This document shows positions 2,465 through 20,010 of a DNA stretch of 64,000 nt, in pieces. The notes under the pieces are model-generated. The model searched no databases. It worked only from the letters and a program-made list of their open reading frames with translations, and was not told where the DNA came from. A program made the position numbers and the translations under genes. Numbering within the stretch: position 1 is the stretch's first letter; each line of letters begins with the position of its first letter. The stretch lies in assembly GCA_037046735.1 (NCBI GenBank), contig JBAOHC010000021.1:110025-174024 (forward strand), given 5' to 3'. Source of the DNA: Candidatus Nanopelagicales bacterium (lineage in GTDB: Bacteria > Actinomycetota > Actinomycetes > S36-B12 > UBA10799).

Positions 2465-3020
2465 GCCGGGTCACTCATGTCTCGCGTGAGTCGGACCGGA
2501 ACCTCCCGTCATTCCACCCGACGAGCGGGAGTAGACCCCAAACTGTCAGGTCGACCGATCCTGCTGTCAGGTATCCGATGCAAACGGACACACGAGGACA
2601 AACGGCAGGACATGCGGTCTTCAGTCGACTAACGGCGTCCCAAGCGCGCCTGTCCGTGCCCCTGTGTCTCGCTGTTTGTCTCATGGGTTCGCCTGCCTCT
2701 GAGTGAGTGGCAGGCACGGTTGTCGACGAGGCTGAAACCCCGAGTAGCGGCACCTGTCTCCTCGACCGACGTCGATTTCTACAGCCCGACAGAGTCGGCG
2801 CCGTATAGCGTCCGTTGTGAACAAGGGCGGGTCCGAGAACTGGATATGAGCGTTGGGCACGTTTCAGAGCCTGCGACCGCGGTGCCGGGGCTCACGAACA
2901 CGCCGAGTGCTCATCCATGGCCCAGGCAAGCGGCGCCCACTAGTCCTGCGGCACCGGTGCTGGCCAAACCGCGCACGTTCGCCATCACCTCACGTGAGTG
3001 GCTTGTTCACCGGTCGTCGA

Positions 3021-3156
3021 CCACATCTGGTTGACGCCCCACCAAGATCAACCAGATGTGGACAGACACGCCGCAGTTTCTGTCCGAAATGTCCTTTCCC
3101 ACGGCGCGTCGCTGGTTGGGAACGATCGTGAGCGTCGATCTCCCAACCAGATGTGG
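3021..3156. repeat. copy A of a 135-136 bp palindromic MITE-like intergenic element (inverted relative to copy B)
   Basis: Terminal 13-mers are ccacatctggttg (3021-3033) and caaccagatgtgg (3144-3156). An inner copy, caaccagatgtgg (3049-3061), gives a perfect 14-bp hairpin at the left end. The central inverted repeat is gacacgccg/cggcgcgtc (3065-3073 / 3102-3110). The reverse complement aligns along its whole length with 20487-20621. Confidence 0.8.
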
Positions 3157-3341
3157 ACACGAAACCGGGATCACCCCAAACTGGCGCGGAAGCACCGGAT
3201 GTGTTGTGGTCTCACACCCGAGCAAGACCCGCACGGGAGCCCCCTCCCTGCATGTCACACTCGCCCGTCTCCGAACGCACCCAGAGCAGCACACGCCTTG
3301 TGCCATACTCCAGTGCCGGACGCGTCAACCCAGGAGCAGCC

Positions 3342-5024
3342 ATGAGCGACACCACCAGCTCGGATCCGCTCGAGGCCCTTGGCCCCGACACCCTGCGGAG
3401 CGTTGCTGATTCGCTGTGGCAGTCCGAACTCGACCTGTCATCGCTACCGGACGGGATCCGCATTGCGCTCACCAGCGAGAAGAACAGCCCTGAGGCCTAC
3501 GGCGAGCGCATGCAGGCGTTCCTGCGCTACCTCAGCGAGCATCCCGTGGAGCACGCGCCGAGCTACGAGAAGACCTACGAACACTTGCTGCCCTTCTGCA
3601 CCCGGCTGTCCCCCCAGCAGGCCTATGCGATCTCGGTGAACCTCCTCGGACCACCGGCGTCCATCGGGTACGACATGGTGCCGACGAAGGCGAACTTCGA
3701 GTTCCCCCGTGACTTCGGGCCGAAGCCCCGAAGCGCCGTCGGATGGCACTTCTTCGTCGGGAGTTGCTGGGACGAGGACGGTGCGGAGTACGGCGTGGAG
3801 CTGATGTTCTTCCAGGCCGGGGTCTTCCCGCCACCCGTGGCCGCGGGCTTCGGGCTGACGGAGGACGAGAACCAGGTCGTCGAAGTCCAGTTGGCCGTCA
3901 GCAAAGCCGGCGAGGGTCACTGGCAGGCGGACCCCGTCTGCCTCGGGGGAACCAGTGGTCTGGTCTCGCACACAACGAACCCGTTCAGTTACACGGTCGG
4001 TCGCAACACGATGGCCTGCCACGACGCTGAGCAGTTCTTCCCGATCACGGTCAAGGCCTGGGGAGTGGATAGGGGCGAAACCCCATCCCGCGAGCTCGCG
4101 GTCGACATCACGTTCACCTCGGGAAAGCAGTACCTGTTCCAGGGAGCCGACGGCTGCATGCCCGCGGTCGACGGCGTGGGGTCGTTGTACTACTCGATTC
4201 CCAACATCAGTCTCGACCCGTCCTGCAGCACACTCACCCTCGATGGACGCACCATTCGGCTGGTGCGGGGCCAGTTCTGGTTCGACCGCCAGTGGGGCTA
4301 CATCTCCGGTGTCTCGCGCTCCAAAGTCATGCGCGCCGCCTCGTTCAGCAAGGACCCCAACCCCGCAGGCTGGGACTGGTTCATGGCCCAGTTCCTCGGT
4401 GACCGCCAGATCACCGTGTTCGCCCCGCACGCCAGCGAGCGCTCGCAGTACTACGAGCAGACGGGGCCGGAGCCGCCCGGGACGATGATCGTGCGCGTGG
4501 GCGGCACCTACATGGACGCCGACCGCGGTCAGGCCCTCACCTGGGGAACACTGCGGATCACCGACTGGATCAAGGCCGTCAACTCTCCCAACCCGCAGCG
4601 CTACGCGGTCACCAACACCTGGTACCCCAACCGGTGGGAGTTCGAGTTCGACGACGTCGTGCCCGAAGACATCAGACGCGTGACGATGACCCCGATCGTC
4701 CAGGTCGCGCAGGTGGGCTTCTTCGCCAACGGCGCCCAGTACGCCGAGGGCGCGGTGATCCTGACCGACCCCGATGGCAACGACATCGGGCGCGGCTTTG
4801 CGGAGTCGGTTGCCTATGCCGACACCCGCGACACCGTGCACCGGATTGCTGGGCTCCCGGACAGCCAGGCCCACATCGATTCGCTGTCCCATCGAACGAT
4901 CCCCAAGTCGCTGGCGGTGCTCAACACCGCCTACGTGCTCGCGCATCAGGCCGAACTCGCTGAGGTAGTCAGCCAATCGGTCGGGCTCGAGTTCTTCACC
5001 CAGCCGCAACCGAAACCTGAGTAG
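3342..5024 (+). CDS. AttH/CrtC-like lipocalin-fold protein (divergent, with about 125 aa N-terminal extension)
   Basis: Lies within ORF 3153..5024. The ATG at 3342 is preceded by AGGAG (3332-3336). The core FEFPRDFGPKPRSAVGWHFFVGSCWDEDGAEYGVELMFFQ resembles the AttH/hydroxyneurosporene-synthase-like signature (P.DHG.HP..EWWY.tG...G..fq.tfF). A later block reads LVRGQFWFDRQWGY. Confidence 0.65.
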   Translation: MSDTTSSDPLEALGPDTLRSVADSLWQSELDLSSLPDGIRIALTSEKNSPEAYGERMQAFLRYLSEHPVEHAPSYEKTYEHLLPFCTRLSPQQAYAISVNLLGPPASIGYDMVPTKANFEFPRDFGPKPRSAVGWHFFVGSCWDEDGAEYGVELMFFQAGVFPPPVAAGFGLTEDENQVVEVQLAVSKAGEGHWQADPVCLGGTSGLVSHTTNPFSYTVGRNTMACHDAEQFFPITVKAWGVDRGETPSRELAVDITFTSGKQYLFQGADGCMPAVDGVGSLYYSIPNISLDPSCSTLTLDGRTIRLVRGQFWFDRQWGYISGVSRSKVMRAASFSKDPNPAGWDWFMAQFLGDRQITVFAPHASERSQYYEQTGPEPPGTMIVRVGGTYMDADRGQALTWGTLRITDWIKAVNSPNPQRYAVTNTWYPNRWEFEFDDVVPEDIRRVTMTPIVQVAQVGFFANGAQYAEGAVILTDPDGNDIGRGFAESVAYADTRDTVHRIAGLPDSQAHIDSLSHRTIPKSLAVLNTAYVLAHQAELAEVVSQSVGLEFFTQPQPKPE

Positions 5025-6257: not shown

Positions 6258-6713
6258 TCTGTCTCCCTCGACAGCTCTACTCCCCGGGGATGGGCAGCCG
6301 ACCTCACCGGTTCTGGCAGAACGGCCGGACCCGGGAACCGGTGGCCGACATGGGAGCAACAGTCGAAATCCGGTCGGGCTCGACATCATCCACGAGATGG
6401 CTTACGACCAGCCAGGACCGGCGCAAGGCCTCATGCAACGTCATCTGAGCACTCACTTTCAAACCACCCCTCATTTCGTCCCTCTACCAGAGTATCGGCA
6501 TCGGAAATCGTCGCCTGAAGAGGTCCTTCCCACTGATTCCGTCGCGCCTTCGACGTCAGCCATCTCCTGCCATGGCTGAGATGAGCCTGCTGCCTCGTCG
6601 ACGGACAGCCGTGCATTCCTCGCCCCGTTGTGGGCGAGCGCCGACGCGCCCGTCAGTCCGGGCACTTCCCCCGGTCGCTTCGTGCGTCTGTGAAACGGTG
6701 GTACTGTGAAACT

Positions 6714-6953
6714 GTGAAGAATCTGACCGTGGCCGTTCCCGATGAGGTGTACCGCTTGGCGCGTGTCCGGGCGGCTGAGTCAGGGACCTCAGTAAGCGCC
6801 CTGGTCACCGCCTACTTGAAATCCCTCGCAAGCGGTTCGGCCGAGTTCGATCGCAAAGCTCAACTCCAACGAGATGTCCTCGCGGACGTCACCGAGTTTC
6901 GCGCCGGTGATCGGCTGAGTCGAGAGGAGGTCCACGACCGTGCCGTTCGTTGA
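6714..6953 (+). CDS. ribbon-helix-helix type II antitoxin (VapB-like)
   Basis: GTG at 6714 within ORF 6630..6953: VKNLTVAVPDEVYRLARVRAAESGTSVSALVTAYLKSL, a typical RHH/CopG N-terminus. It overlaps the downstream PIN toxin start by 14 nt. Confidence 0.7.
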   Translation: MKNLTVAVPDEVYRLARVRAAESGTSVSALVTAYLKSLASGSAEFDRKAQLQRDVLADVTEFRAGDRLSREEVHDRAVR

Positions 6954-7347
6954 CACGAACGTTGTGTTGTACGCGGTCTCTACCCATCCATCCGAGGTGT
7001 CGAAGGCGCAGATCGCTCGCACACTCCTCGAGTCTGCGGACATCTGTTTATCCACTCAGGTGCTGCAAGAGTTCTACGTACAAGCCACCCGCCAATCTCG
7101 GCCCGATGCCCTCTCGCGTGATCAGGCCGCGGCGCTCGTCGAGGCCCTCACCAGGTTCTCCGTCCAAGACGTGACTGTCTCGATCGTGCGCGCAGCCATT
7201 CACACGATGAGCCGGTTCAACCTGTCGTACTGGGATGCCGCCATCATCGAGGCAGCCCGTGAGCTGGGCTGCGCGCAATTGCTCTCCGAGGACCTCTCGC
7301 ACGGACAGGACTACAACGGGGTCACGGTCGTGAATCCGTTCCTGTAG
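6940..7347 (+). CDS. vapC: PIN-domain ribonuclease toxin VapC
   Basis: VPFVDTNVVLYA... supplies the first acidic PIN residue. ...QVLQEFY... and ...SYWDAAIIEAARELGCAQLLSEDL match the conserved D/E/D pattern of the VapC family. About 135 aa. Confidence 0.85.
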   Translation: MPFVDTNVVLYAVSTHPSEVSKAQIARTLLESADICLSTQVLQEFYVQATRQSRPDALSRDQAAALVEALTRFSVQDVTVSIVRAAIHTMSRFNLSYWDAAIIEAARELGCAQLLSEDLSHGQDYNGVTVVNPFL

Positions 7348-7390: not shown

Positions 7391-7912
7391 TTGGGATATC
7401 GACGCGGATTTACAATGCGTCAGTGCCGACTGCGAAGCCGAGCGTGCGGCATCTGGTGCGCGCGCGACCTCGCCGATCTTCGGTACACCGAGCCACTGAC
7501 CGTCGAGGATCTCGCGAAGGTCGAGCACATGTCTCGGGCCCACTTCTCCCGCGAGTACAAGAAGGCGTTCGGTGAGTCGCCGTACTCGTATCTGCTCACG
7601 CGCCGCCTGGAACGCGCGGCGACACTGCTGCGCAGCACCGACTGGTCGGTCGCAGACATTTGCATAACTCCTACCGGGTGGCTCAAGGCACAGCGATCGC
7701 CTGAGCCTTTGGACCGCGCGGCGAAGGTCTCGACATCGGCCGATGTGGTAGGCGCCCACGTGGCAGCATCAGTCGACCTTCGCCAGAAGAGCCCTAGTTC
7801 GCTCGTGGTCCGGGGCATCCGACACGGGCGATCCAGGAACACCAGCGCGTCGGCGGACGTGAATCATGGCAATCGTGATCTCCACAGCGCCGTCACGTGC
7901 GGTCCAGATTGA
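7391..7912 (+). pseudogene. AraC-family HTH regulator remnant (second HTH and effector domain lost)
   Basis: The first HTH is intact: LTVEDLAKVEHMSRAHFSREYKKAFGESPYSYLLTRRLERAATLLRSTDWSVADIC. The expected second HTH (..GF.S.S.F.R.F..) is missing, and the remaining 80 codons or so are not protein-like. No intact effector domain was found in any frame up to 7976. Confidence 0.4.
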
Positions 7913-7976: not shown

Positions 7977-9116
7977 TCAGAGCCAACGAGGTCGGCGCGC
8001 CTGCCGTACCCGCCTTCGGTCAGAACTCTGAAGCGGCAACCCCCCAGTCGTCGCATCGCTACCTGGGCCCTGCAAACCTTCCACGGCCCGACCCACGCTT
8101 CCCCAGGTCACCAACGCCAGCGCCAACTCCTCCTCCTCCATCTCGTTCACTGCGGCCAGCCCGCGATCCTCCAACTCGTCGCGCAGCCGCAATCGTGTCC
8201 GCCATTTGGGTGGTGTCGGCGGGTACGCCAGGTGCGCTAATCCCGGCCCGGTGAGCATCGCCACCGGTGGGGCAACTCCGGAGTCTGACCACTTCACCAG
8301 CTCGATCCCGGCCAGGACAGAACTGATCGCCCAGTGCGCGGCGAAAGCCTCGACGTCGGCGAGGTCGTAGGGGCTGGCGATGAGGCGCAGCGCGAGCGAG
8401 TCGTTGATCCCGGTGCGTAGCCACTGGGCGCGTAGCGTCGGGTCGGCGCGGTCGGACGTGCCGTAGGTCCAGGCCAGATAGGTGATGGAGTGAGGCTCCA
8501 GCGGCACCGAACGCATCGTGTCACGGATCCACTCCAGGCTCGGATTGCGGGCCATCACGCCGAGGTAGAACTTCGCCGGCAGCGGGTCGTCGGCGTCGAC
8601 CTCCAGGCTGATCCGGTCAACCTCGTCGGGGTGCATCCCGCAGTCCCACATAGTGCTCCACGGCTCGCCGGGCATCTCCGGGACCGGCTGCGGGGCGATC
8701 CCGCGGCACAGCGCCGACACCTGCCACGCGTTGGCGCCATGGGTCAGCGCCACGTGTTTGGGGTCCCGGGCGTGGGCCGCCGCGTCCTGCGGGGTTTGGT
8801 ACCCGCGCCGGGGACAACACTTAGCCTTCTTCACGGCGTGCCACGACGCCCGGGAGTGATTGGCTCTGATCGGACGACCCGCGAGGCGCTGCTCGAGGGT
8901 GTACCACTCGAGCACCGCCGGGGCGGCATCCGCCAACTCCAGACAGGACAGGTAGCCGCCCAGTGCGGCCAGAATCCGTTCCTGTTCCAGATCATGGCCG
9001 GTGTCGATGCGGCCGTCCGGGTATAGCGTGACCGGGTGCCGCTTCGAGCCCTTGGTGCTATTGCGGCTGGTCCGGCACGCCACGTTGACCGTCACTGGTC
9101 CGGGTAGGTCAGGCAT
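7977..9116 (-). CDS. orphan protein, third gene of the MoxR/VWA operon (Cys/His-rich N-terminal third)
   Basis: Lies within ORF 7977..9188. The ATG at 9116 overlaps the stop of the upstream VWA gene (ATGCCTGA, 9109-9116). GC3 is high throughout. There are 12 Cys/His in the first 140 aa (C14 H27 H41 C58 H87 H93 C100 C101 H115 H121 H126 C137). I recognised no family. The last 40 codons or so may be unreliable because another frame is also open at 7769..8056. Confidence 0.6.
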   Translation of the reverse strand: MPDLPGPVTVNVACRTSRNSTKGSKRHPVTLYPDGRIDTGHDLEQERILAALGGYLSCLELADAAPAVLEWYTLEQRLAGRPIRANHSRASWHAVKKAKCCPRRGYQTPQDAAAHARDPKHVALTHGANAWQVSALCRGIAPQPVPEMPGEPWSTMWDCGMHPDEVDRISLEVDADDPLPAKFYLGVMARNPSLEWIRDTMRSVPLEPHSITYLAWTYGTSDRADPTLRAQWLRTGINDSLALRLIASPYDLADVEAFAAHWAISSVLAGIELVKWSDSGVAPPVAMLTGPGLAHLAYPPTPPKWRTRLRLRDELEDRGLAAVNEMEEEELALALVTWGSVGRAVEGLQGPGSDATTGGLPLQSSDRRRVRQARRPRWL

Positions 9117-10323
9117 CGGGTACCACCTCCACCCGCTGCACCCACGCCGGCGTGACCGGCAGCAGGTCGCGCTGCCTGCCCAACACACCCACGATCACCG
9201 GCACCGGGGCGGGCACCGACGGCCATGGGGTGAACCCGTCCGTGAGCACGATCACTGTCTGCGGCGCCGGGCGGCAGGCCAGTGCCCCCGTGATACCTGC
9301 TCCCATGTCTGTGCCGCCACCACCGGCCAGTCGCACCTCGCGCACGTCGCGGACCGGCTGCACGGCGTGCACCGCAGCGTCCACCGCCAGCACTGTCACG
9401 CTGCTGTCCGGCACGGCCAACGACGCCAACACCGCCTTCACCTCCCCCAGCGCCTGCGCCAGCAGCCCGTCATCGATGCTGCCCGAGGTGTCGATCACCA
9501 CCGCCACCGCCGGCACTGGACGGCGCAACGCGGGCACGATGGCCTTGCCCACCGCGTGCTGACGGCGGGAGATCTTCGAATACGTGTAGTCGACCTGACC
9601 CTGACCCCAACCAACCCCGCGGCGGACGGCCGCGTGCAGCACCTGCTGCCAGGGCACCACCGGATCCAGGATGTGCCGGACCCACCGCCCCCACTCCCCG
9701 GCCACATTGCCGTACTCGCGGCAGTGCTCCCGGAACTCAATCGCCACCATCTTGCGGATCCCCTCAGCGCCCTGCGTCGACAGTCCGGGCATCTGCTCGT
9801 CAGCAGGCGGCAGGTCGTAATCGCGGGCCATCCCGTCACAGCCACTCCCACACGTCTGGTCCGGGTCCAGTCCCAATGGCGACTTCGTCACCGGCAAGGC
9901 CCGCAACAGCCGAAAGTACTCCTCCGCCGAACGGTTCGGATCCTGATACACCTGCCGCGGCTGGGGCAGGCCGACGTCGAAGGGCAACACCTCCGAGACC
10001 GTAAGATCCGTGGCCAGCTTCCACCGGTCCCGACCCGCCGCGTCCACACCGCAGTCCAGGGCCCTGCCCGCATGGTCGGCCAACAGGTGCCACACCTGAT
10101 GAGCGACCTCCCCGGCCAGCACCTGCACATCCGTGGCCACCGCCCACAACGGGTTCACATACAGCCGCCAATAGACATCAGCGGACATCCGCGCCACCCG
10201 CTCCGTCGGCACTGTCACCAGCGCGTAAACCGCGGTCGACAGGTAGGGCAAATCCCCGGCCGACTGCGAGACCAGCCACAACTTCGCCGCGGCCATCCGC
10301 TGCTCCACATCACGGTCGATCAC
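9109..10323 (-). CDS. VWA-like domain protein with N-terminal putative metallopeptidase module (DUF2201-type), HExxH degenerated to HQxxH
   Basis: Lies within ORF 9109..10491. The GTG at 10323 forms a GTGA overlap with the MoxR stop. N-terminal module: EVAHQVWHLLADHAGR...RDRWKLATDLTVSEVL. C-terminal module: PAVAVVIDTSGSIDD...AVDAAVH...GGGGTDMGAGI...VIVLTDGF, which is VWA/MIDAS-like. Confidence 0.8.
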   Translation of the reverse strand: MIDRDVEQRMAAAKLWLVSQSAGDLPYLSTAVYALVTVPTERVARMSADVYWRLYVNPLWAVATDVQVLAGEVAHQVWHLLADHAGRALDCGVDAAGRDRWKLATDLTVSEVLPFDVGLPQPRQVYQDPNRSAEEYFRLLRALPVTKSPLGLDPDQTCGSGCDGMARDYDLPPADEQMPGLSTQGAEGIRKMVAIEFREHCREYGNVAGEWGRWVRHILDPVVPWQQVLHAAVRRGVGWGQGQVDYTYSKISRRQHAVGKAIVPALRRPVPAVAVVIDTSGSIDDGLLAQALGEVKAVLASLAVPDSSVTVLAVDAAVHAVQPVRDVREVRLAGGGGTDMGAGITGALACRPAPQTVIVLTDGFTPWPSVPAPVPVIVGVLGRQRDLLPVTPAWVQRVEVVPDA

Positions 10324-11435
10324 AGCAGACCAGCCAGTTGCAGCGCCGGAGCGAACACCGTCAACCCCGCTGGTAGGTCCGCCCCCGCCGGCCGCCGCCC
10401 AGGACGCAACAACGCCCGCACCACCGGCACCGCCGAGTCCAGACTCGAATGCCCCGCTGCCCCGACACACACCCCCATGGCCGCGGTCCACCGTTGCGGA
10501 CTCGGATCAGACGTGTAAGCGGCCAACACCCCCTGCAGAGCCACATGCACCCGGTCGGGGCGCAAACCCTTCAGCCCATCTCCCATCGGGTCGGCGAGCA
10601 GCTCCTCCGGATCCGGAAGATCCAACGCCGACCGCCACGTCAGGAACTCATGCCCCACCGGCGCCCCCACCGCCCCGTACACAAGTAGCCGACGCACCTC
10701 CTCGCCCGCCCCGGCGTACCCGGCGATCGCCAGCAGTTGCGCCGCGTAGTCCCACGTCCGCGGCGTGGGGAAGGCCCGGCCCCGGCCAGCGGCATCCTTC
10801 GGAATCGAGGAGAGCTGCCCACCCCGGGTACGCAGGAAACCCGCAACAAGACCGCGTTCAGCCATCGCCAATCTGTCGAAGGTGGACGGTCGCTCCGGCA
10901 CCGGCAGCACCGGCCAATCCCCGGTCACGATCGACTCCGTGTACACATCCAGCGGCAACGACCACTCCAGATGCACAAACCGGTTCGCCGTCGGCGCGGC
11001 CAACTCCCACCCCGAAGCGGCCACATCCGCCGGGTTCGCCGCCGCTCCGAACGACACCCGCTGCGGCAACTGCAACGCCCCCACCTGAGCATGGGTCAAC
11101 GGCCGCAATGCCGCCGCCTGCACCGCGGGCGAAGCCGTCGTCCACTCATCAAAGAAGACAATCGACGGCTTCGGCTCCTCCGAAACCCGCACCGCCCACC
11201 CCGGCGGCGCCAACGTCACCCGATCCCCGTGCACCACCGGCAGCCCCGCAAAATCCGAGGGCTCATAGTGCGAACAGATCAACGTTTCCACATGCCAACC
11301 GCTGCCCGTCGCCGACTCAATCACCGCCGTCTTCCCCGCCCCCGGATCACCCCACAACAGGAACGGAATCCGCGCGGTGATGCACACCCCCACCGCCTGC
11401 AGCACTGCCTCATACGACTGCCGATCCCTGGCCAT
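10320..11435 (-). CDS. MoxR-like AAA+ ATPase (AAA_5 type)
   Basis: Lies within ORF 10320..11519. The ATG at 11435 follows a strong SD, GGAAGGGGAAG. Walker A is LWGDPGAGKT, Walker B is SIVFFDEW, and sensor 1 is FGAAANP. ANRF lies in the arginine-finger region. Confidence 0.85.
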   Translation of the reverse strand: MARDRQSYEAVLQAVGVCITARIPFLLWGDPGAGKTAVIESATGSGWHVETLICSHYEPSDFAGLPVVHGDRVTLAPPGWAVRVSEEPKPSIVFFDEWTTASPAVQAAALRPLTHAQVGALQLPQRVSFGAAANPADVAASGWELAAPTANRFVHLEWSLPLDVYTESIVTGDWPVLPVPERPSTFDRLAMAERGLVAGFLRTRGGQLSSIPKDAAGRGRAFPTPRTWDYAAQLLAIAGYAGAGEEVRRLLVYGAVGAPVGHEFLTWRSALDLPDPEELLADPMGDGLKGLRPDRVHVALQGVLAAYTSDPSPQRWTAAMGVCVGAAGHSSLDSAVPVVRALLRPGRRPAGADLPAGLTVFAPALQLAGLL

Positions 11436-12223: not shown

Positions 12224-15200
12224 ATGAGCGAGATAGACATGACCACGCGGCACGAGGGCCACACCCCCGCGACCGCACCGGAGAGCCCACAGGCGGCCAG
12301 TGACATCGCGGCAGCGCCCGCCGACGCTCCCCCACCCACGCAGCGCCCGCCCTATCCGGGCCTCCCGGCGGTGATTCACGGCAACGGGGCGATCGCTCAT
12401 GTCATGCGGCATGTGTGCGGCGGCGTCATCGGCTACCCCATCACCCCGTCCACCGAGATCTCGGAACTGTTCGAGGCCGCCCGCTCCGAAGGCGGCGTCA
12501 ACGTGTGGGGCAAGCACCCCTTCTTCTTCGAACCCGAAGGGGAGCACTCCGCGCAGAGCGGTGCGCTCGGAGCAGCGCTCACCGGCGGGCAGTTCATCTC
12601 CAACGCCTCGTCGAGCCAGGGCATCCTCTACGCGATGGAGTCGCACTACGTGACCGTCGGTAAGAAGACGGGCGGCTTCGTGCTGCAGGTCGCGGCCCGC
12701 GTGGTGTCCAAGCACTCCCTCAACGTGATGGCCGGCCACGACGACGTCTACGCGCTGCTGTCGGCCGGCTACACGATCCTGTTCGGCTCGAACCCGCAGG
12801 AGGCCGCCGATCTCGCGGCGATTTCCTACCGGACCTCAGCACTGTCGCTCATCCCGGTCGCCAATGCCATGGATGGGTTTTCCACCAGCCACATGATCAG
12901 CGAGGCGTTGTTACCCGAACCCGAACTGCTGCGCGACTACCTCGGTGACCCCGCCGGGCGGATTGCGAGCCCCACTGTCGCCCAGGACATCCTGTTCGGT
13001 GCCAAAGGCCGAGTCGTCGCCTTGAACCAGTACCTCGACCGCCACCGCGATGACTTCCGACCGGCAGATCTCGCAGCTCTGAAAGCACACATCGACGACA
13101 TGGCCGCACAGGTGGAGGCCGACAATGACGGCGACCTGATCGAGACGACTCTGCGTTTTGTCCCTGACGAGCTGCACGGCCAGTGGCAGCGCCAATGGCG
13201 TAACGCTTTCCAGAAGGGGACCCGGCAACTCGTGCCTGCCCTGGTCGACGTGAACACTCCGGGGCTGACGGGCGCTGTCCAGAACCAGCCCGACTTCCAG
13301 GCCGGAGCGGTCGACCACCGCACTCACTTCGCCAGCGCAGTCCCAGCATTGACCCGCCGGGCCATGGCCGAGTACGCGACGCTGACCGGCCGGGCCTACT
13401 CCCCAGTCATGGCCTACGACTGCGACGACGCCGACTACATCATGATCGGGCTGGGCTCGATCACCGACGATGTCCGGGCGGTCCTACCCGTCTTGCGGGC
13501 ACGAGGGATGAAGGTCGGCGTCGTGAGCGTGAAGCTCCTGCAGCCGTTCCCCGAAGCGGAGCTCATCGAGGCGATCGCGGGCGCAAAGGCAATCACGGTG
13601 CTCGAGCGTTCCGACCAGACCGCCCTGACCGCTCTTGTGACCCAGGCGCTGTTCCGGGCCGGAGCCAACGCCGTTGAGCCGCGCCACGAGGGCATCCCCG
13701 CCCTCGCCACGCAGCCCCGCCTCACGACGGCGATCTTCGGGCTGGGCGGGCACGACGTCCAGCCCCGCCACATCATTGCCGCGTTCGAGCAGATGACCAC
13801 TGCTGACAGCGCCCCGCTGATCTACCTGGGCTCGCAGTTCTTCACGCAGACCTCATCCGCGCAGATGGCCGACGTACAGGCTCGCCTGCGGGTCGCCTAC
13901 CCGGAGACCGAACTCATGGCCTTGGAGACCGGCCCCAACCCCGTTCTCCTGCCCGAGTCCGCGATCCGGATCCGCTTCCATTCCGTGGGTGGGTACGGCA
14001 CCATCGCGACCGGCAAACTGCTGACCGACATCCTCGCCGGCGTCCTGCAGATGCACTCCAAATCCGCACCTAAATACGGCTCCGAAAAGAGCGGTGCGCC
14101 GACCAACTACTACATCACGCTGAGCCCGGAACCCGTGCTGATCACCAACGCCGAACTCGAAGACGTCGAGATCGTGGTGTCGCCTGACCATCGTGCGTTC
14201 ATCCACGCGAATCCGCTCAAGGGCCTGGTGGAAGGCGGCACCTTCATCCTGCAGTCCGACCTGTCGCCGGAGGACGTCTGGCGAGAGTTGCCACGGCACG
14301 CCCGGCGCACCATCCGCGACCGCCAGATCCGCTTCCTGGTCGTGGACGCATTCAAGGTGGCCAAGCGGCACGCCCCGACCGCGGAGCTCGAAACCCGCAT
14401 GATGGGCATCGCATTCATCGGAGCAGTCGTCGGTCACGTTGAGCAGATCGCCGGCGGCGCGTCCGAGGACGCCATCGCCGAGAAGGTCCGCGCGCAGATC
14501 CTCAAGAAGTTCGGCAGCAAGGGTGACGCCGTCGTCGAGGGCAACATGGAGGTCATCCGGGAGGGGATGGAAGCCACCGAGGTCGTCGACTACGACACCC
14601 CGCTGTTCCTGGCGATCGATGAGGCCCCGCCGGTGACTCTGCGGCGTCCCGGGACCGCCTCGACGCAGATGTGCGCCACAGCCGCGAGTACCGCCGGCCT
14701 GTTCGACCCGTCCTACTACGAGGATGCCACCGCCCGCCCGTTCCGGGAGGGCACGATCGGCGAGGCGCCAGTGCTGCCGGGGGCCGGGCTGTTCATGCCC
14801 GCGGGCACAGCAGCATCCAAGGACAAGGGGCTGTTCCGCCGGACGGTGCCCCACTTCGACTTCTCCACGTGCACCGGATGCATGGAGTGCGCCCTGGCGT
14901 GCCCCGACGCCGCGATCCCCAACACGATCCACGAGATCCACGATCTGATCCTGACCGGGATCAAGGAGATCGACGTCACCGAGGCGCAGCGGGATGCGCT
15001 GCGGGTCCACGTGTACACCCTCGCGGAGGGCGTGCGGGAGTCCTACCGGCAGGACAAGACCCCCCGCGCGTTCGCCGACATCGTCGCCGAGGTCGCGACT
15101 GGGATCGATGACGGGCAACCCACTCTGCGGCGCAACATCGAGCGACTGGTGGCGAAGCTGGCCACCTACCCGGTGGCCCGCACCCGGCCCTTCTTCGACG

Positions 15201-17308
15201 CGATGGAAAGCAGCGTCCCCGGCACCGGCGGGTTGTTCGCCGCCACGATCGACCCCTGGAAGTGCACAGGCTGTCTGGAGTGCATCGACGTCTGCGGGCC
15301 GGGTTCGTTGACCCCCACCGACGAGGACACCGACGTGCTCCTCGGGCTGCAGGACACGTTCGAGTTCATGACCGAACTGCCGAACACCCCTGCTCGCTTC
15401 CTCGAGGACTCAGCGACCCCGGGCGGAGACCTCAAACGCCTCATGCTGGACCGGGACAACTTCTACGCCACGACCGGGGGCCATGGCGCGTGCCGTGGCT
15501 GCGGTGAGGTCACGGCGATCCGGCTGGTGATGGCCGCGAGCCATGCACTGGCCGACGACCGGCGGCGTGCCCACCAGCGCGACCTCGACGACCTCGTGGA
15601 CCGCCTGCAGGCAAAGCTTGCGACTCTCACCGAGGAGCCCGCACGCCACCAGCGCGTGCAGGCGGCTCTGAACACTCTGCAGCGCAGGCTCTACCTCTAT
15701 GAGGGCGGTCCGACCGGTAACGGTCCCGCTCCGGTGGTGGTCGCCAACGCCACCGGGTGCAGCAGCGTCTACGCCTCGACCATGCCCTACAACTCCTACA
15801 GTGATCCGTGGGTGAACAGCCTGTTCCAGGACAGTTCCCCGCTGGCCAAGGGGATCTTCGAGGGCATCGCCGCGCAACTCACCGAGGATGTCCGCGCCTT
15901 GCGCATCGCAGCCCTCGAACTCGACGACGCCTACGACGAGGCCCGCGACGAGCGTGCCCTGCGGATCCTGTCCTGGGAGAAGTTCACCCCTGCTGAACTC
16001 GCGCTGCTGCCCACCATCATGAGCATCGGCGGCGACGGCGCGAGCTACGACATCGGCTTCGGTGCGATGTCGCGGGTACTGGCCAGCGACACTCCGCTGA
16101 AGATGCTGGTCCTGGACTCCGGGGCCTACTCCAACACCGGCGGCCAAGCCTCCACGTCGAGCTTCACCGGGCAGGACTCCGATCTCTCACGGTTCGGTGG
16201 TTCGCACACCGGCAAGCATGAGGCGCGCAAGGAACTGGCCCTCATCGCCTCCTTCCACCCGCATGTGTATGCGTGCTCGACGAGCACGGCGTTCCACGGC
16301 CACTTCCTCGAGACGACCCTTGAGTACCTGGGCTACGACAAGGCGCCGGCCGTCATGAACGTCTACACCCCCTGCGGGTCCGAGCACGGCATTCCCGAAT
16401 CGTCGTCCAACGCCCGGGCCCGGCTCGCCGTCGAGAGTCGCATGCATCCGCTGTTCGTGCATGACCCGCGCCGCGGCACCACCATGCACGACTGGTTCTC
16501 GATCGACGGCAACCCGGACGCGCAGTCGGCATGGACCACCAAGACGCTGGAGTACCTCGACGACTCCGGTGCCCTGCAGTTGCTGACCACACCCTTGACC
16601 CCGGCCGAGTTCGCACTCGGTGAGGTGCGGTTCAAGAAGCAGTTCCGTATCCTGCGGCCCGAGGAGCAGGCACTGGCCACCCCGATCGACGAGTACGTGG
16701 AACTGTCGGCGGAGCAACGCACCCAGCACGTGCCGTTCGTCTACGCGACCGATGACCAGCGGCACCTGATCAAGGTGGCCTGCTCGCACAAGATCGTCGC
16801 TCTGGTCGATGATCGGCGCCGGTACTGGCAGACATTGCAGTACCTGTCCGGGGTACACGAGGCGCAACTCACGGCATTGCACCGCGCGGACATCGAAGAC
16901 CTCCAGACGCGATTCGAAGAGGCCGCAGCGGCGCGCGAGACCTCCTTGGATGACATCGCGCGAGCCATGTCTGAGTTGGCGACTTCTAGCAGAGCACCAG
17001 CAGGAGCGGCTATGCCGGTCATGTCCTCTGCCGCCCCCAGGGCGGCCCCAACCGTCGCTGCGCCGGATGCGGCGGCGCACGGTCCGATCTGGCTCGACAC
17101 CGCCGACGAGGCGCTGTGCAACGACTGCGGCACGTGTTACCAGGAACTCCCCCAGTTCTTCGCGAAGACCACGGTGGTCATCGACGGCGAGGCCCGCGTG
17201 ATCGCGCGCATGATCCCGGGGGCAGCGCAGACGGTGGAAGTGACCCCCGACATCGCCAAACGGATCGATCGGGTGCGAGCCAACTGCGATGCGGAGATCA
17301 TCCGATGA
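12224..17308 (+). CDS. pyruvate:ferredoxin (2-oxoacid:acceptor) oxidoreductase-like enzyme, unusually long, with C-terminal ferredoxin-like domain
   Basis: SD AAGGTGAGGG lies before ATG 12224. Domain I: GNGAIAHVMRHVCGGVIGYPITPSTEI...EGEHSAQSGALGAALTGG. Two 4Fe-4S motifs: CTGCMECALACP and CTGCLECIDVCGP. TPP site: GHGACRGCGE...GGDGASYDIGFGAMSRV...LDSGAYSNTGGQ. The extra C-terminal module is CNDCGTCYQELPQFF...NCDAEI. Confidence 0.9.
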   Translation: MSEIDMTTRHEGHTPATAPESPQAASDIAAAPADAPPPTQRPPYPGLPAVIHGNGAIAHVMRHVCGGVIGYPITPSTEISELFEAARSEGGVNVWGKHPFFFEPEGEHSAQSGALGAALTGGQFISNASSSQGILYAMESHYVTVGKKTGGFVLQVAARVVSKHSLNVMAGHDDVYALLSAGYTILFGSNPQEAADLAAISYRTSALSLIPVANAMDGFSTSHMISEALLPEPELLRDYLGDPAGRIASPTVAQDILFGAKGRVVALNQYLDRHRDDFRPADLAALKAHIDDMAAQVEADNDGDLIETTLRFVPDELHGQWQRQWRNAFQKGTRQLVPALVDVNTPGLTGAVQNQPDFQAGAVDHRTHFASAVPALTRRAMAEYATLTGRAYSPVMAYDCDDADYIMIGLGSITDDVRAVLPVLRARGMKVGVVSVKLLQPFPEAELIEAIAGAKAITVLERSDQTALTALVTQALFRAGANAVEPRHEGIPALATQPRLTTAIFGLGGHDVQPRHIIAAFEQMTTADSAPLIYLGSQFFTQTSSAQMADVQARLRVAYPETELMALETGPNPVLLPESAIRIRFHSVGGYGTIATGKLLTDILAGVLQMHSKSAPKYGSEKSGAPTNYYITLSPEPVLITNAELEDVEIVVSPDHRAFIHANPLKGLVEGGTFILQSDLSPEDVWRELPRHARRTIRDRQIRFLVVDAFKVAKRHAPTAELETRMMGIAFIGAVVGHVEQIAGGASEDAIAEKVRAQILKKFGSKGDAVVEGNMEVIREGMEATEVVDYDTPLFLAIDEAPPVTLRRPGTASTQMCATAASTAGLFDPSYYEDATARPFREGTIGEAPVLPGAGLFMPAGTAASKDKGLFRRTVPHFDFSTCTGCMECALACPDAAIPNTIHEIHDLILTGIKEIDVTEAQRDALRVHVYTLAEGVRESYRQDKTPRAFADIVAEVATGIDDGQPTLRRNIERLVAKLATYPVARTRPFFDAMESSVPGTGGLFAATIDPWKCTGCLECIDVCGPGSLTPTDEDTDVLLGLQDTFEFMTELPNTPARFLEDSATPGGDLKRLMLDRDNFYATTGGHGACRGCGEVTAIRLVMAASHALADDRRRAHQRDLDDLVDRLQAKLATLTEEPARHQRVQAALNTLQRRLYLYEGGPTGNGPAPVVVANATGCSSVYASTMPYNSYSDPWVNSLFQDSSPLAKGIFEGIAAQLTEDVRALRIAALELDDAYDEARDERALRILSWEKFTPAELALLPTIMSIGGDGASYDIGFGAMSRVLASDTPLKMLVLDSGAYSNTGGQASTSSFTGQDSDLSRFGGSHTGKHEARKELALIASFHPHVYACSTSTAFHGHFLETTLEYLGYDKAPAVMNVYTPCGSEHGIPESSSNARARLAVESRMHPLFVHDPRRGTTMHDWFSIDGNPDAQSAWTTKTLEYLDDSGALQLLTTPLTPAEFALGEVRFKKQFRILRPEEQALATPIDEYVELSAEQRTQHVPFVYATDDQRHLIKVACSHKIVALVDDRRRYWQTLQYLSGVHEAQLTALHRADIEDLQTRFEEAAAARETSLDDIARAMSELATSSRAPAGAAMPVMSSAAPRAAPTVAAPDAAAHGPIWLDTADEALCNDCGTCYQELPQFFAKTTVVIDGEARVIARMIPGAAQTVEVTPDIAKRIDRVRANCDAEIIR

Positions 17309-20010
17309 CCGCCGAGCTCGACTATCAAGTTGAGTTGCTGCGCAGACGACTGGTCAGCGACCCGCGCGCCTTCCGTGAGGTGTTCATCTCCGAGGGGATG
17401 CAGGCCGTGGCCTGGGAGTTCCAGCAGCCCGAGTTGGGCGCGGAGTTCACCGATCGCATGTGGTCCATGCTGGTGCGCGGCGACGATGCGAGCACCCTGC
17501 TGATGCGGTTCGTGTGGAACCTTCCCCTGTCAGGCAAGCGCAAATTCATCCGCGCCCTGGACACACATCTGTCGCAGCGCTACCCGATGTTCGAGGGCCT
17601 GTCGCAAGGCTGGCCCGCGCACAGTTGCATCGAGCCGTACGTGCGCGACGCCGACCAGCGCGCTGAGGACTTCGGCCTGGTGAACCAGGGTTTCCTGGGA
17701 TACCTGGAGCTGGGATACACCCAGCAAGAGGTCGACTTGATCGTGTGGCTCGAGGTGCTGCGCGACAAGCAGTGCGAGGAGAAGCCCTGCGAGCTCGGGG
17801 TGTTCCTGGCCGAGTGCCGTGAACCCACCGGCGGCTGCCCGGTGGCCATCCACATTCCGCAGGTGATCGAGTTGATCGGCACGGGTCGGTTCCAGGAAGC
17901 GCTGGAGCTGCTGGAATCCAGCAATCCGCTGCCGGACGTGACGGGTCGGGTCTGCCCGCAGGAGCTGCAGTGTCAGGGGGTGTGTATCCAGAAGAAGCCG
18001 ATCGCAATCGGCCAGCTCGAGTGGTACCTGCCCGAACGCGAGAAACGGATCGATCCACAGGGCACCGCCCGACGTTTGGCACGGGTCCGCGATCCGTGGG
18101 AGCGGGCGACGCACCCGCCGGTGGCCATCATCGGGTCGGGTCCATCAGGCCTCATCAACGCCTATCTGCTGGCTGCCCAGGGCTTCCCGGTGACGGTCTT
18201 CGAGGCATTCCACGCCCTCGGCGGGGTGCTGCGGTACGGCATCCCCGAGTTCCGCCTGCCCAATGAGCTGATCGACGACGTCGTGGCGAAGATCCGGATG
18301 CTCGGCGGGCGGTTCGTGATGAACTTCGTGGTCGGCAAGACGGCGACCCTGCAGGACCTGCGCGATGCCGGCTTCGCCCGGATCTTCGTGGGCACCGGGG
18401 CAGGGCTGCCGCGGTTCATGAACGTTCCCGGCGAACACCTGCTCAACGTGATGTCGGCCAACGAATTCCTGACCCGGGTCAACCTCATGCAGGGGCTGCG
18501 GGCCGACTTCGAAACCCCGCTGCCCGAGACCGACGGCAAGGAGATCCTGGTCATCGGGGGCGGCAACACCGCGATGGATGCCGCCCGCACCGCGCGGCGA
18601 CTGGGCGGCCACGTGACGATCGTGTACCGACGCACCCAGGCGGAGATGCCCGCGCGGGTGGAGGAGCAGCACCACGCCCTGGAGGAGGGCATCGTGTTCG
18701 AGGAGTTGCGCTCACCGATCGAGTTCATCGGCAATGACCGCGGCTTCGTGGCTGCCGCGACCCTCGACCAGATGGAACTCGGCGAGCCTGATGACTCCGG
18801 GCGCCGTCGCCCTGTGTCCACCGGGCGCACGGAAACGAAGCGCGCGGATCTGGTCATCATGGCCCTGGGCAACGCATCGAATCCGATCATCAAGGATTCC
18901 GAGCCGCGGCTGGAGACCTCAAAGTGGGGCACGATCAATCTGGCGCATGAGGGCTCGCAGGAGACCACGCTGGACGGCGTCTACACCGGCGGCGACGCCG
19001 CACGCGGCGGCTCCACCGCAATTCTGGCGGCAGGCGACGGTCAGTCCGCCGCCCGCGAGATCCTGGCCATCGACGATCTGACACCCGAGGTGATCTCCGA
19101 TTCCGTGCAGCGAGCGCGCGACTACACCGACCTGGCCAACACAGAGGCCACCATCGTGGCCCGCACGGAACTCAGCGACGGCATCGTCGAGTTCACGGTG
19201 CGCGCGCCGTTGGTCGCCCGCTCGGCCCAAGCCGGGCAGTTCGTGCGGGTGCTGCCCGCCCCCGACGGTGAGCTCATTCCGCTCACCCTGGCGGACTGGG
19301 ATGGCGCCAAGGGCACGATCTGCCTCGTCGTGCAGGGGGTGGGAACCAGCAGCATTGAGATCAACCGGATGGGCGTCGGCGACGTCTTCACGGGAGTCGC
19401 AGGACCGCTGGGGCGGCCCAGCGAGATCACCCGCCATGACCAGGGAACGGTGGTCTTCACCGCTGGCGGCCTCGGCCTGCCGCCGGTGTACCCGATCATG
19501 CGAGCGCATCTGCTGGCCGGCAACCATGTGACGCTGATCAGCGGTTTCCGCAGTGCGGACCTGATGTTCTGGACCGGTCCGGGCGAGCGGATCGAGACGC
19601 TGCGCGCGGAGTTCAGCGATCAGCTCGACGTCGTGTACACGACCAACGATGGGTCGTTCGGCACTCCTGGCTTCGTGACGGGCCCCCTGGAGGAGTTGCT
19701 TCAGCAGAAGCGGGTTGCCGAGGTCGTCACCATCGGGCCGCCGATGATGATGCGTGCGGTCAGTGACCTCAGCCTGCGATACGAGACGCCCTGCGTGGCC
19801 AGCCTGAACTCGATCATGGTGGATGCCACCGGCATGTGCGGAGCGTGCATGGTGCCGGTCGTCATCGAGGGCAAAGCCGTGCGCAAGCACGCGTGCATCG
19901 ACGGACCCGAGATCAACTCCCACATCATCGAGTGGGACAAGTTCCTACCCCGCTTCAACCAGTTCAGCGCGCAGGAGAAGGCCAGCCGCGTCCGGCACGG
20001 GTTGGCCTGA
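17305..20010 (+). CDS. fused NfnB/GltD-like (Fe-S + FAD/NAD(P)) and NfnA/PyrK-like (FAD/2Fe-2S) oxidoreductase with unknown N-terminal domain
   Basis: Lies within ORF 17116..20010. ATG 17305 overlaps the PFOR stop as ATGA. Fe-S helical domain: GGCPVAIHIPQVIELI...GRVCPQELQCQGVC. Dinucleotide site: VAIIGSGPSGL. A second Rossmann motif is ILVIGGGNTAMDAA. The C-terminal PyrK/SudB-like part contains GQFVRVL...IPLTLAD...GMCGACMVPV...HACIDGPE. Confidence 0.85.
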   Translation: MTAELDYQVELLRRRLVSDPRAFREVFISEGMQAVAWEFQQPELGAEFTDRMWSMLVRGDDASTLLMRFVWNLPLSGKRKFIRALDTHLSQRYPMFEGLSQGWPAHSCIEPYVRDADQRAEDFGLVNQGFLGYLELGYTQQEVDLIVWLEVLRDKQCEEKPCELGVFLAECREPTGGCPVAIHIPQVIELIGTGRFQEALELLESSNPLPDVTGRVCPQELQCQGVCIQKKPIAIGQLEWYLPEREKRIDPQGTARRLARVRDPWERATHPPVAIIGSGPSGLINAYLLAAQGFPVTVFEAFHALGGVLRYGIPEFRLPNELIDDVVAKIRMLGGRFVMNFVVGKTATLQDLRDAGFARIFVGTGAGLPRFMNVPGEHLLNVMSANEFLTRVNLMQGLRADFETPLPETDGKEILVIGGGNTAMDAARTARRLGGHVTIVYRRTQAEMPARVEEQHHALEEGIVFEELRSPIEFIGNDRGFVAAATLDQMELGEPDDSGRRRPVSTGRTETKRADLVIMALGNASNPIIKDSEPRLETSKWGTINLAHEGSQETTLDGVYTGGDAARGGSTAILAAGDGQSAAREILAIDDLTPEVISDSVQRARDYTDLANTEATIVARTELSDGIVEFTVRAPLVARSAQAGQFVRVLPAPDGELIPLTLADWDGAKGTICLVVQGVGTSSIEINRMGVGDVFTGVAGPLGRPSEITRHDQGTVVFTAGGLGLPPVYPIMRAHLLAGNHVTLISGFRSADLMFWTGPGERIETLRAEFSDQLDVVYTTNDGSFGTPGFVTGPLEELLQQKRVAEVVTIGPPMMMRAVSDLSLRYETPCVASLNSIMVDATGMCGACMVPVVIEGKAVRKHACIDGPEINSHIIEWDKFLPRFNQFSAQEKASRVRHGLA

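Follow-up and report, generated by a model that had tools for sequence, protein, structure and literature searches.

MoxR-VWA pairs such as CoxD/E, NorQ/D, and BchI/D insert metal cofactors, and pairs that carry a peptidase domain, often an inactive one, are already known. DUF2201-type proteins, in which a zincin-like and a VWA domain are joined, are widespread in bacteria and phages as partners of MoxR ATPases. In phages, a MoxR-vWA pair that includes a metallopeptidase domain at the N-terminus was proposed to act as a chaperone and its cochaperone (Iyer et al. 2021, PMC7824862), and in vWA-MoxR systems the peptidase domains joined to the vWA component were described as often catalytically inactive (Kaur et al. 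2020, PMC7159879). The published literature that we found on DUF2201, PF13203, and PF09967 consists of incidental mentions, with no characterisation and no protease assay of any DUF2201 protein. The labels "peptidase" and "dead peptidase" thus rest on motif logic, and any loss of catalysis presupposes a zincin mechanism which, for DUF2201_N itself, is suggested by its sequence.

The locus described here lies in a 64,000-nucleotide stretch of DNA, called the window below, from a Candidatus Nanopelagicales bacterium. It resembles the PF13203/PF09967 proteins that are accompanied by MoxR/AAA_5 ATPases in its two-domain architecture and in its ATPase neighbour, but the Glu of the HExxH motif and the residues R82, N102, E108, and N110 of this family are absent, and the third gene of the operon differs from that of the nearest HExxH-type actinomycete operons. 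As in RavA-ViaA, CbbQ-CbbO, NorQ-NorD, CoxD-CoxE, and BchI-BchD, a Walker-intact AAA+ ATPase is found together with a MIDAS-intact VWA protein, whereas the VWA partners in those systems have no zincin-like domain. A further likeness is with the vWA-MoxR conflict systems, whose vWA partner bears a peptidase-like domain that likewise lacks catalytic residues and presumably acts without catalysis. However, most of those domains resemble caspases or trypsin; they occupy "effector" positions and belong to ternary systems with VMAP or a beta-propeller, while the domain studied here is zincin-like and N-terminal. No VMAP, beta-propeller, FtsH-type, or effector domain was detected at the locus, and searches with the product of its third gene, a 379-aa protein, gave no match in Pfam, NCBIfam, PADLOC, or the PDB. 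As far as sequence can tell, a zincin-like form that lacks the Glu throughout a clade and comes with a third gene of its own is new.

An operon of three coupled genes

The gene of the zincin-like and VWA-like protein (404 aa) occupies positions 9109-10323 of the window on the minus strand, stop codon included, as delimited by its ORF and by the genes called on other contigs. Its product is 100% identical to an annotated 404-aa protein of a Candidatus Nanopelagicales MAG. Two Pfam domains follow each other along the protein, and both passed their gathering thresholds: first PF13203 (DUF2201_N, "putative metallopeptidase domain"), the zincin-like domain, at residues about 8-260 (positions 9544-10302, minus strand; 65.5 bits vs. 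a cut-off of 23.2, E = 7.7e-18), and then the VWA-like domain PF09967 (DUF2201) at residues about 273-397 (9133-9507, minus strand; 68.8 bits vs. 26.4, E = 5.8e-19). PADLOC and NCBIfam scans of the same protein gave no match. The MIDAS of the VWA domain, D278-T-S280-G-S282 (9478-9492, minus strand), is intact in its DxSxS...T...D form, and D278, T279, S280, S282, T338, and D362 were all invariant in a 93-sequence alignment (A1).

Upstream of this gene, a MoxR-like AAA+ ATPase of 371 aa is encoded at positions 10320-11435 on the minus strand, counted from a probable ATG at 11435 in a frame that is open up to 11519; the products called in relatives have 369-370 aa. Its Walker A motif (GDPGAGKT, 11328-11351, minus strand), read from the ORF translation, and its Walker B motif (IVFFDE), further downstream in the same ORF, are both intact. 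The Pfam matches of the ATPase remained below threshold (AAA_5, 20.8 bits vs. a cut-off of 22, E = 4e-4; bpMoxR, 17.4 vs. 27, E = 2.4e-3) and PADLOC returned one marginal RtcR-like match only, while the orthologue in a Streptomyces locus (L084) passed AAA_5 with 31.5 bits. ATPase orthologues, 40-89% identical, were present in all related loci, and a homologue was found immediately upstream of the DUF2201 gene in every related locus with a long enough contig.

The 404-aa gene is translationally coupled to both of its neighbours. Its GTG start (10323-10321) overlaps the TGA stop of the ATPase gene (GTGA), and its end overlaps by 8 nt (ATGCCTGA) the downstream gene, which encodes the 379-aa protein, Cys/His-rich and of no known family, and is placed by called genes at positions 7977-9116 on the minus strand, with its ATG at 9116-9114.

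The wider neighbourhood contains genes for a 1694-aa PFOR, a GltD-like oxidoreductase, a sigma factor, a FUSC-like membrane protein, and a PIN toxin. A defence-island or prophage setting was considered and rejected, since the neighbours look chromosomal and ordinary.

Position 76 across the clade and the family

The initial annotation had reported an altered HExxH motif in this protein, with Gln in place of the catalytic Glu. Read again from the minus strand, positions 10072-10101 (cat cag gtg tgg cac ctg ttg gcc gac cat) do encode HQVWHLLADH, that is H75-Q76-V-W78-H79-L-L-A82-D-H84, with the CAG codon of Gln76 at 10096-10098 (minus strand). When 1.84 billion cluster representatives were searched exhaustively with phmmer, 7,870 relatives were found, and 146 of the best 150, clustered at 50% identity, were aligned with MAFFT. 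The block matches the family motif H-E-x-x-H-L-L-R-x-H-x-x-R column for column and without gaps: the query keeps H75, H79, H84, and R87 and has Q for E76 and A for R82. Glu occupies column 76, as GAG or GAA, in the HExxH-type relatives and in 117 of the 146 representatives (80%), and the other positions of the motif are more conserved still (H75, 144/146; H79, 145/146; R82, 124/146; H84, 143/146; R87, 141/146). As aligned, HQVWH is the HExxH column of DUF2201_N; the Glu that is the norm of the family is missing from it, and both His and the downstream His are kept, in agreement with the initial annotation on each of these points. The strings HELAH and HELGH, present in a few close homologues, were considered as the true motif and rejected; they are chance overlaps formed by H71-E72-x-x-H75 in other columns.

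That annotation had treated the substitution as one transition in one codon. The exchange that separates GAG from CAG, G to C, is a transversion, and the extent of the change is also much larger than a single codon of a single strain. Among the 118 full-length closest homologues (45-100% identity), position 76 was occupied by Q (46), L (40), H (24), V (5), A (2), or S (1) and never by Glu, although H75 was kept in 117/118 and H79, H84, and R87 in 118/118 each. In the clade of the query as a whole, which comprises 123 members over the same range of identity, none had Glu (Q46, L43, H24, V5, A2, M2, S1). Since the Glu is absent from 123/123 members down to 45% identity, the difference does not correspond to a one-step E-to-Q event in one strain.

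The same picture was obtained from genomic loci. A scan with a 19-sequence alignment as query, restricted to one genome per species, yielded 80 loci. Glu76 was absent from 29/29 readable loci at 45-83% identity, which carry Q, H, L, V, or I instead and span at least six actinobacterial lineages; their hosts belong to the Nanopelagicales, Propionibacteriaceae (including Aestuariimicrobium ganziense), Intrasporangiaceae, Kineosporiaceae, Jiangellales, Microbacteriaceae, and Micrococcales. In contrast, the loci at 39-44% identity (Streptomyces, Actinomadura, Nonomuraea, Actinoallomurus, Rhodococcus rhodnii, and others) all read HE[VAIL]xHLLRDH. Codon 76 was CAG, GTC, CTG, GTG, CAC, CAT, CTC, or ATC in the Glu-less loci, and GAG (n = 51) or GAA (n = 1) in the HExxH loci. 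GAG is one step away from both CAG and GTG, yet it was never seen among the Glu-less loci, which suggests that position 76 tolerates uncharged residues but apparently not Glu. In a neighbour-joining tree, drawn without bootstrap, the Glu-less clade of the query was monophyletic, and the Glu had also been lost in about nine further lineages scattered over the family; it may thus be less indispensable than had been assumed at the outset. Taken across these alignments, the absence of Glu76 reads as old and lineage-fixed, with Q itself not conserved, and this settles the choice between a fixed and a strain-specific difference that the initial annotation had left to an alignment.

The single-base distance between CAG and GAG is all that would speak for a sequencing error, a mutation confined to this strain, or a pseudogene. 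The identical protein was found on 13-14 independent contigs, its gene has an uninterrupted reading frame that is translationally coupled to the genes on either side, and the protein is strongly conserved in a clade in which no member has the Glu. Artefact or pseudogene is excluded by these data, and the probability that we would leave to any such origin is practically nil.

The spectrum of residues at position 76 also bears on the idea that Gln76 was selected as a steric mimic of Glu, so that a substrate would be bound uncleaved and handed over to the ATPase. Engineered E-to-Q zincins do act as traps: the E137Q variant of BepA, an M48 peptidase, is protease-dead, stabilises the BepA-LptD interaction and substrate binding, and retains part of the chaperone-like function of the enzyme (PMC8423444). 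Q is, moreover, the commonest residue at position 76 in the closest relatives of the query (at least 54% identity). However, L, V, H, A, M, S, or I are found at this position as often as Q over the clade, so no Gln-specific property is conserved, and four further pocket residues have been lost as well. We consider a Gln-specific trap to be very unlikely. The initial annotation had proposed a substrate trap or an adaptor for the ATPase, and of these two the non-proteolytic adaptor is a reasonable proposal, given the adjoining AAA+ ATPase. Its more general premise, that an E-to-Q change abolishes hydrolysis and preserves binding, has a precedent in BepA, a distant M48 protein, whereas for DUF2201 proteins protease activity itself has not been demonstrated in the published literature that we found.

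Residues lost, residues kept, and the zincin-like domain

The 123 members of the clade were compared with 110 HExxH-bearing representatives. Besides Glu76, the clade has lost R82, N102, E108, N110, and D111, which are conserved in the HExxH group at 93%, 91%, 80%, 97%, and 78%, respectively, and W78, A82, and T108 have become fixed. H75, H79, H84, R87, D106, E134, C158, and S160 are kept. The Glu-less lineages outside the clade of the query retain R82, E108, and N110, which indicates that the pocket was remodelled more deeply in this clade. The initial picture of a single E-to-Q change does not account for the loss of R82, N102, E108, and N110.

Such losses do not amount to decay of the domain. 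In the N-domain of the clade, 36 positions are at least 97% conserved at a mean pairwise identity of 55%, which indicates that the N-domain is under purifying selection. Measured against the VWA domain, however, its zincin core (residues 45-140) is less well conserved in the clade (identity ratio 0.78) than it is in the HExxH relatives (1.0).

It may be asked whether the domain is still a hydrolase, in which water is activated through Glu72, Asp83, Asp106, or the metal alone. None of the candidate metal ligands varies, and conservation of the domain is strong; Glu72, which precedes Q76 by one helical turn, is enriched in the Glu-less clade, where the HExxH relatives have Val; and the about nine other lineages without Glu76 that keep R82, E108, and N110 leave room for a Glu76 that is not strictly essential. 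On the other hand, residue 72 is Glu in only 66 of the 118 closest homologues (about 56%) and R, Q, H, A, or G in the others, and Glu72 was rejected on this ground as a relocated general base that would explain the clade in general, although it could be a partial substitute for Glu76 in some members. The clade has not acquired a fixed acidic residue in the vicinity of the motif, and the loss of several conserved polar pocket residues at once is more easily explained by a catalytic site that decayed than by one that moved elsewhere. A hydrolase that persists by another route is, in our view, quite unlikely.

The likeness to zincins was also analysed beyond the motif. A PDB sequence search with the single 404-aa protein gave no match, whereas a 93-sequence profile gave a weak one to the M48 peptidase 3c37 (E = 0.0012) across the HExxH helix, placing '...LAGVLAHEINHAVARHGTR' opposite the motif helix; the VWA portion of this profile matched the VWA domain of the Mg-chelatase BchD (2x31). 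Two AlphaFold2 models, both confident, had a pLDDT of 90 (whole protein) and of 92.8 (residues 1-245). A Foldseek search of the PDB with the full model returned only VWA folds (CLCA1, integrin I domains), aligned to the C-terminal half, and with the N-domain it returned nothing significant. The weak local matches of the N-domain were to the minigluzincins selecase and jannalysin (E above 1) and to IrrE. Against predicted viral structures (BFVD), the N-domain found many phage "metallopeptidase / VWA-like domain" proteins, with E down to 3e-11.

An M48-like gluzincin layout consists of HExxHxxxxH followed by a downstream Glu. This layout, seen in M48 gluzincins (BepA, HtpX, Ste24) and in minigluzincins (selecase, jannalysin), is common to the family of the query, in which an invariant Glu lies about 55 residues beyond the HExxHxxxxH-type motif. 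The residue in question, Glu134 (GAG, 9922-9924, minus strand; motif AEEY[FY]), is invariant in the 93-sequence alignments A1 and A3, at least 97% conserved across the Glu-less clade, and located on helix 133-141 of the AlphaFold2 model of residues 1-245, and it is a candidate third metal ligand of the gluzincin type. From the M48-like HExxH...E arrangement, we infer by analogy that H75, H79, and E134 are the putative metal ligands. The N-domain nevertheless differs from M48 proteins and minigluzincins by a similarity that is marginal, by large helical additions, and by having no close solved structure, and membership of M48 was supported by none of the tests made.

The explanation that we favour, and consider probable, is that the N-domain is an ancient pseudo-peptidase, which has lost its general base and residues of its pocket, has kept a probable metal site, and has been retained as a binding or scaffolding module. 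It is in line with the frequent inactivity of vWA-fused peptidase domains, with the chaperone-cochaperone proposal for the phage pair, and with the substrate binding of protease-dead BepA E137Q. HQVWH would be the equivalent of the HExxH helix in a zincin-like domain, distantly M48- or minigluzincin-like and fused to VWA, and the Glu would have been lost long ago in an actinobacterial clade along with R82, N102, E108, and N110. Purifying selection would have held H75, H79, E134, H84, R87, and D106 as well as the whole fold, such that the domain may no longer hydrolyse peptide bonds but may still hold a metal. The VWA domain, with its intact MIDAS, would couple the N-domain to the ATPase, and the two proteins together would remodel or assemble a client, for which, or for a co-adaptor, the 379-aa Cys/His-rich protein is the best candidate.

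The operon partners and what they suggest

A homologue of the 379-aa gene was adjacent in every Glu-less locus with a long enough contig and in none of the HExxH-type loci. In the closest relatives of the query it lies downstream, as here, and in the other loci it precedes the ATPase gene. The conserved motifs of this protein family are C..H..T.HD..ER..A.GG..SC, at the N-terminus, and C..AA.H.R...H. The HExxH-type loci have instead, upstream of the ATPase, genes for an LRR protein and for a 581-aa protein with weak ankyrin similarity. The two types of operon split cleanly according to the presence or absence of the Glu.

The strict co-occurrence of the Glu-less protein with a partner that has conserved Cys/His motifs is of interest for another possibility, in which the His/His/Glu site would load a metal into the 379-aa protein, in the manner of the MoxR-VWA pairs that insert cofactors. 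Candidate ligands were indeed kept while catalytic residues disappeared, and the closest match of the VWA profile is the VWA domain of BchD. However, the same ligands are conserved in the HExxH-type relatives, which have different partners, no metal-trafficking genes were found near the locus, and metal loading is proposed here by inference only. We regard metal handling as unlikely.

Homology between the 379-aa and the 581-aa proteins over their full lengths was rejected, since a short module alone matches. The N-terminal motif of the 379-aa family aligns with residues about 367-415 of the 581-aa protein, weakly both by BLASTP (E = 0.5) and by hhalign (E = 8e-4, probability 24%). When an HMM of the module was run on six-frame translations, it gave the best or a near-best match at a constant place in about 35 of 53 HExxH-type loci, and the module common to the two proteins is probably real. 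These about 40 residues (C..H..PH..GG..C) are internal in the 581-aa protein and form the extreme N-terminus of the partner of the Glu-less type. One reading of this arrangement is that the HExxH systems would cleave the 581-aa protein to expose the module, whereas the Glu-less systems would encode it "pre-exposed", with the dead site serving to grip it.

A broader proposal can be made on the same grounds, namely that several actinobacterial orders possess a distinct three-gene system made of a MoxR-like ATPase, a pseudo-zincin-VWA adaptor that retains its metal, and a Cys/His-rich partner, in which the change of partner compensated for the lost proteolysis. We put this forward as doubtful, with a low probability similar to that given above to a relocated catalytic mechanism. 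The pseudo-peptidase itself, taken alone, is a fairly ordinary case of a pseudoenzyme and overturns nothing that is known.

Within a family of zincin-VWA and MoxR ATPase pairs, one clade has dropped the presumed catalytic Glu and four of its neighbours, has kept the putative metal ligands, and has concurrently switched its operon partner. The Glu-less clade is in this respect a natural "protease-dead" counterpart of the HExxH-type systems. The 379-aa Cys/His-rich protein is nominated as a specific candidate client, and a comparison of the Glu-less with the HExxH-type systems could tell whether proteolysis, binding, or metal handling underlies the function of this family.

The 379-aa partner protein and a similar module in HExxH-type operons

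The DUF2201 gene is translationally coupled to a 379-aa ORF (window 7977-9116, minus strand), whose product gave no match in the libraries searched (Pfam, NCBIfam, PADLOC, and PDB sequences). Two motifs, C..H..T.HD..ER..A.GG..SC and C..AA.H.R...H, are conserved in this protein, and its gene strictly co-occurs with the Glu-less clade, the actinobacterial relatives that lack Glu in the second column of the HExxH motif (position 76). In more distant members its place flips: instead of lying downstream of the VWA gene, it lies upstream of the ATPase gene.

The N-terminus of the 379-aa protein resembles (hhalign E = 8e-4) a C/H module of about 40 residues in the 581-aa accessory protein that HExxH-type operons encode. 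In Streptomyces sp. NBC_01520 (locus L084), this module lies at 4105-4251 and covers residues 367-415 of the 581-aa protein, whose ORF spans 3007-4752; about 35 of the 53 HExxH-type loci (L032-L085) have a match at the equivalent place (nt ~3950-4380). The HMM matches to the module were weak, yet their position was constant across these loci. Two loci of Luedemannella flava, L036 and L037, lie about 21 kb apart on one contig and carry identical HExxH-type matches, which suggests that the entire operon region was recently duplicated.

Genes flanking the operon

Immediately downstream of the three-gene operon, a small ORF (6630-6953, plus strand) runs into the start of an ORF for a PIN-domain (VapC-like) protein (6940-7347, plus strand), and the two probably form a type II toxin-antitoxin pair. 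A 173-aa ORF (7391-7912, plus strand), which contains only an AraC-type HTH region and is overlapped by other frames, is possibly a truncated regulator, or else a remnant. Divergent from the ATPase operon run two oxidoreductase genes (12224-20010, plus strand); the first encodes a 1694-aa fused pyruvate:ferredoxin oxidoreductase-like protein and is overlapped by the next, encoding a 964-aa GltD/DPD-like FAD/Fe-S oxidoreductase.

Residue E72 and loss of the HExxH Glu

Residue E72 (10108-10110, minus strand) precedes position 76 by one helical turn. It is Glu in about 56% of Glu-less clade members and Val in the HExxH relatives; the Glu is enriched in the clade, not conserved. In a few homologues, E72 creates accidental HELAH strings.

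The HExxH Glu is also absent, replaced by H, Q, A, V, or C, from about nine more scattered lineages of the family (representatives P0132, P0152, P0155, P0159, P0161, P0164, P0172, P0174, P0184, P0226, P0228, P0243, P0249, P0254, P0260, and P0268), which retain the pocket residues R82, E108, and N110. Loss of this Glu is therefore recurrent within DUF2201_N.
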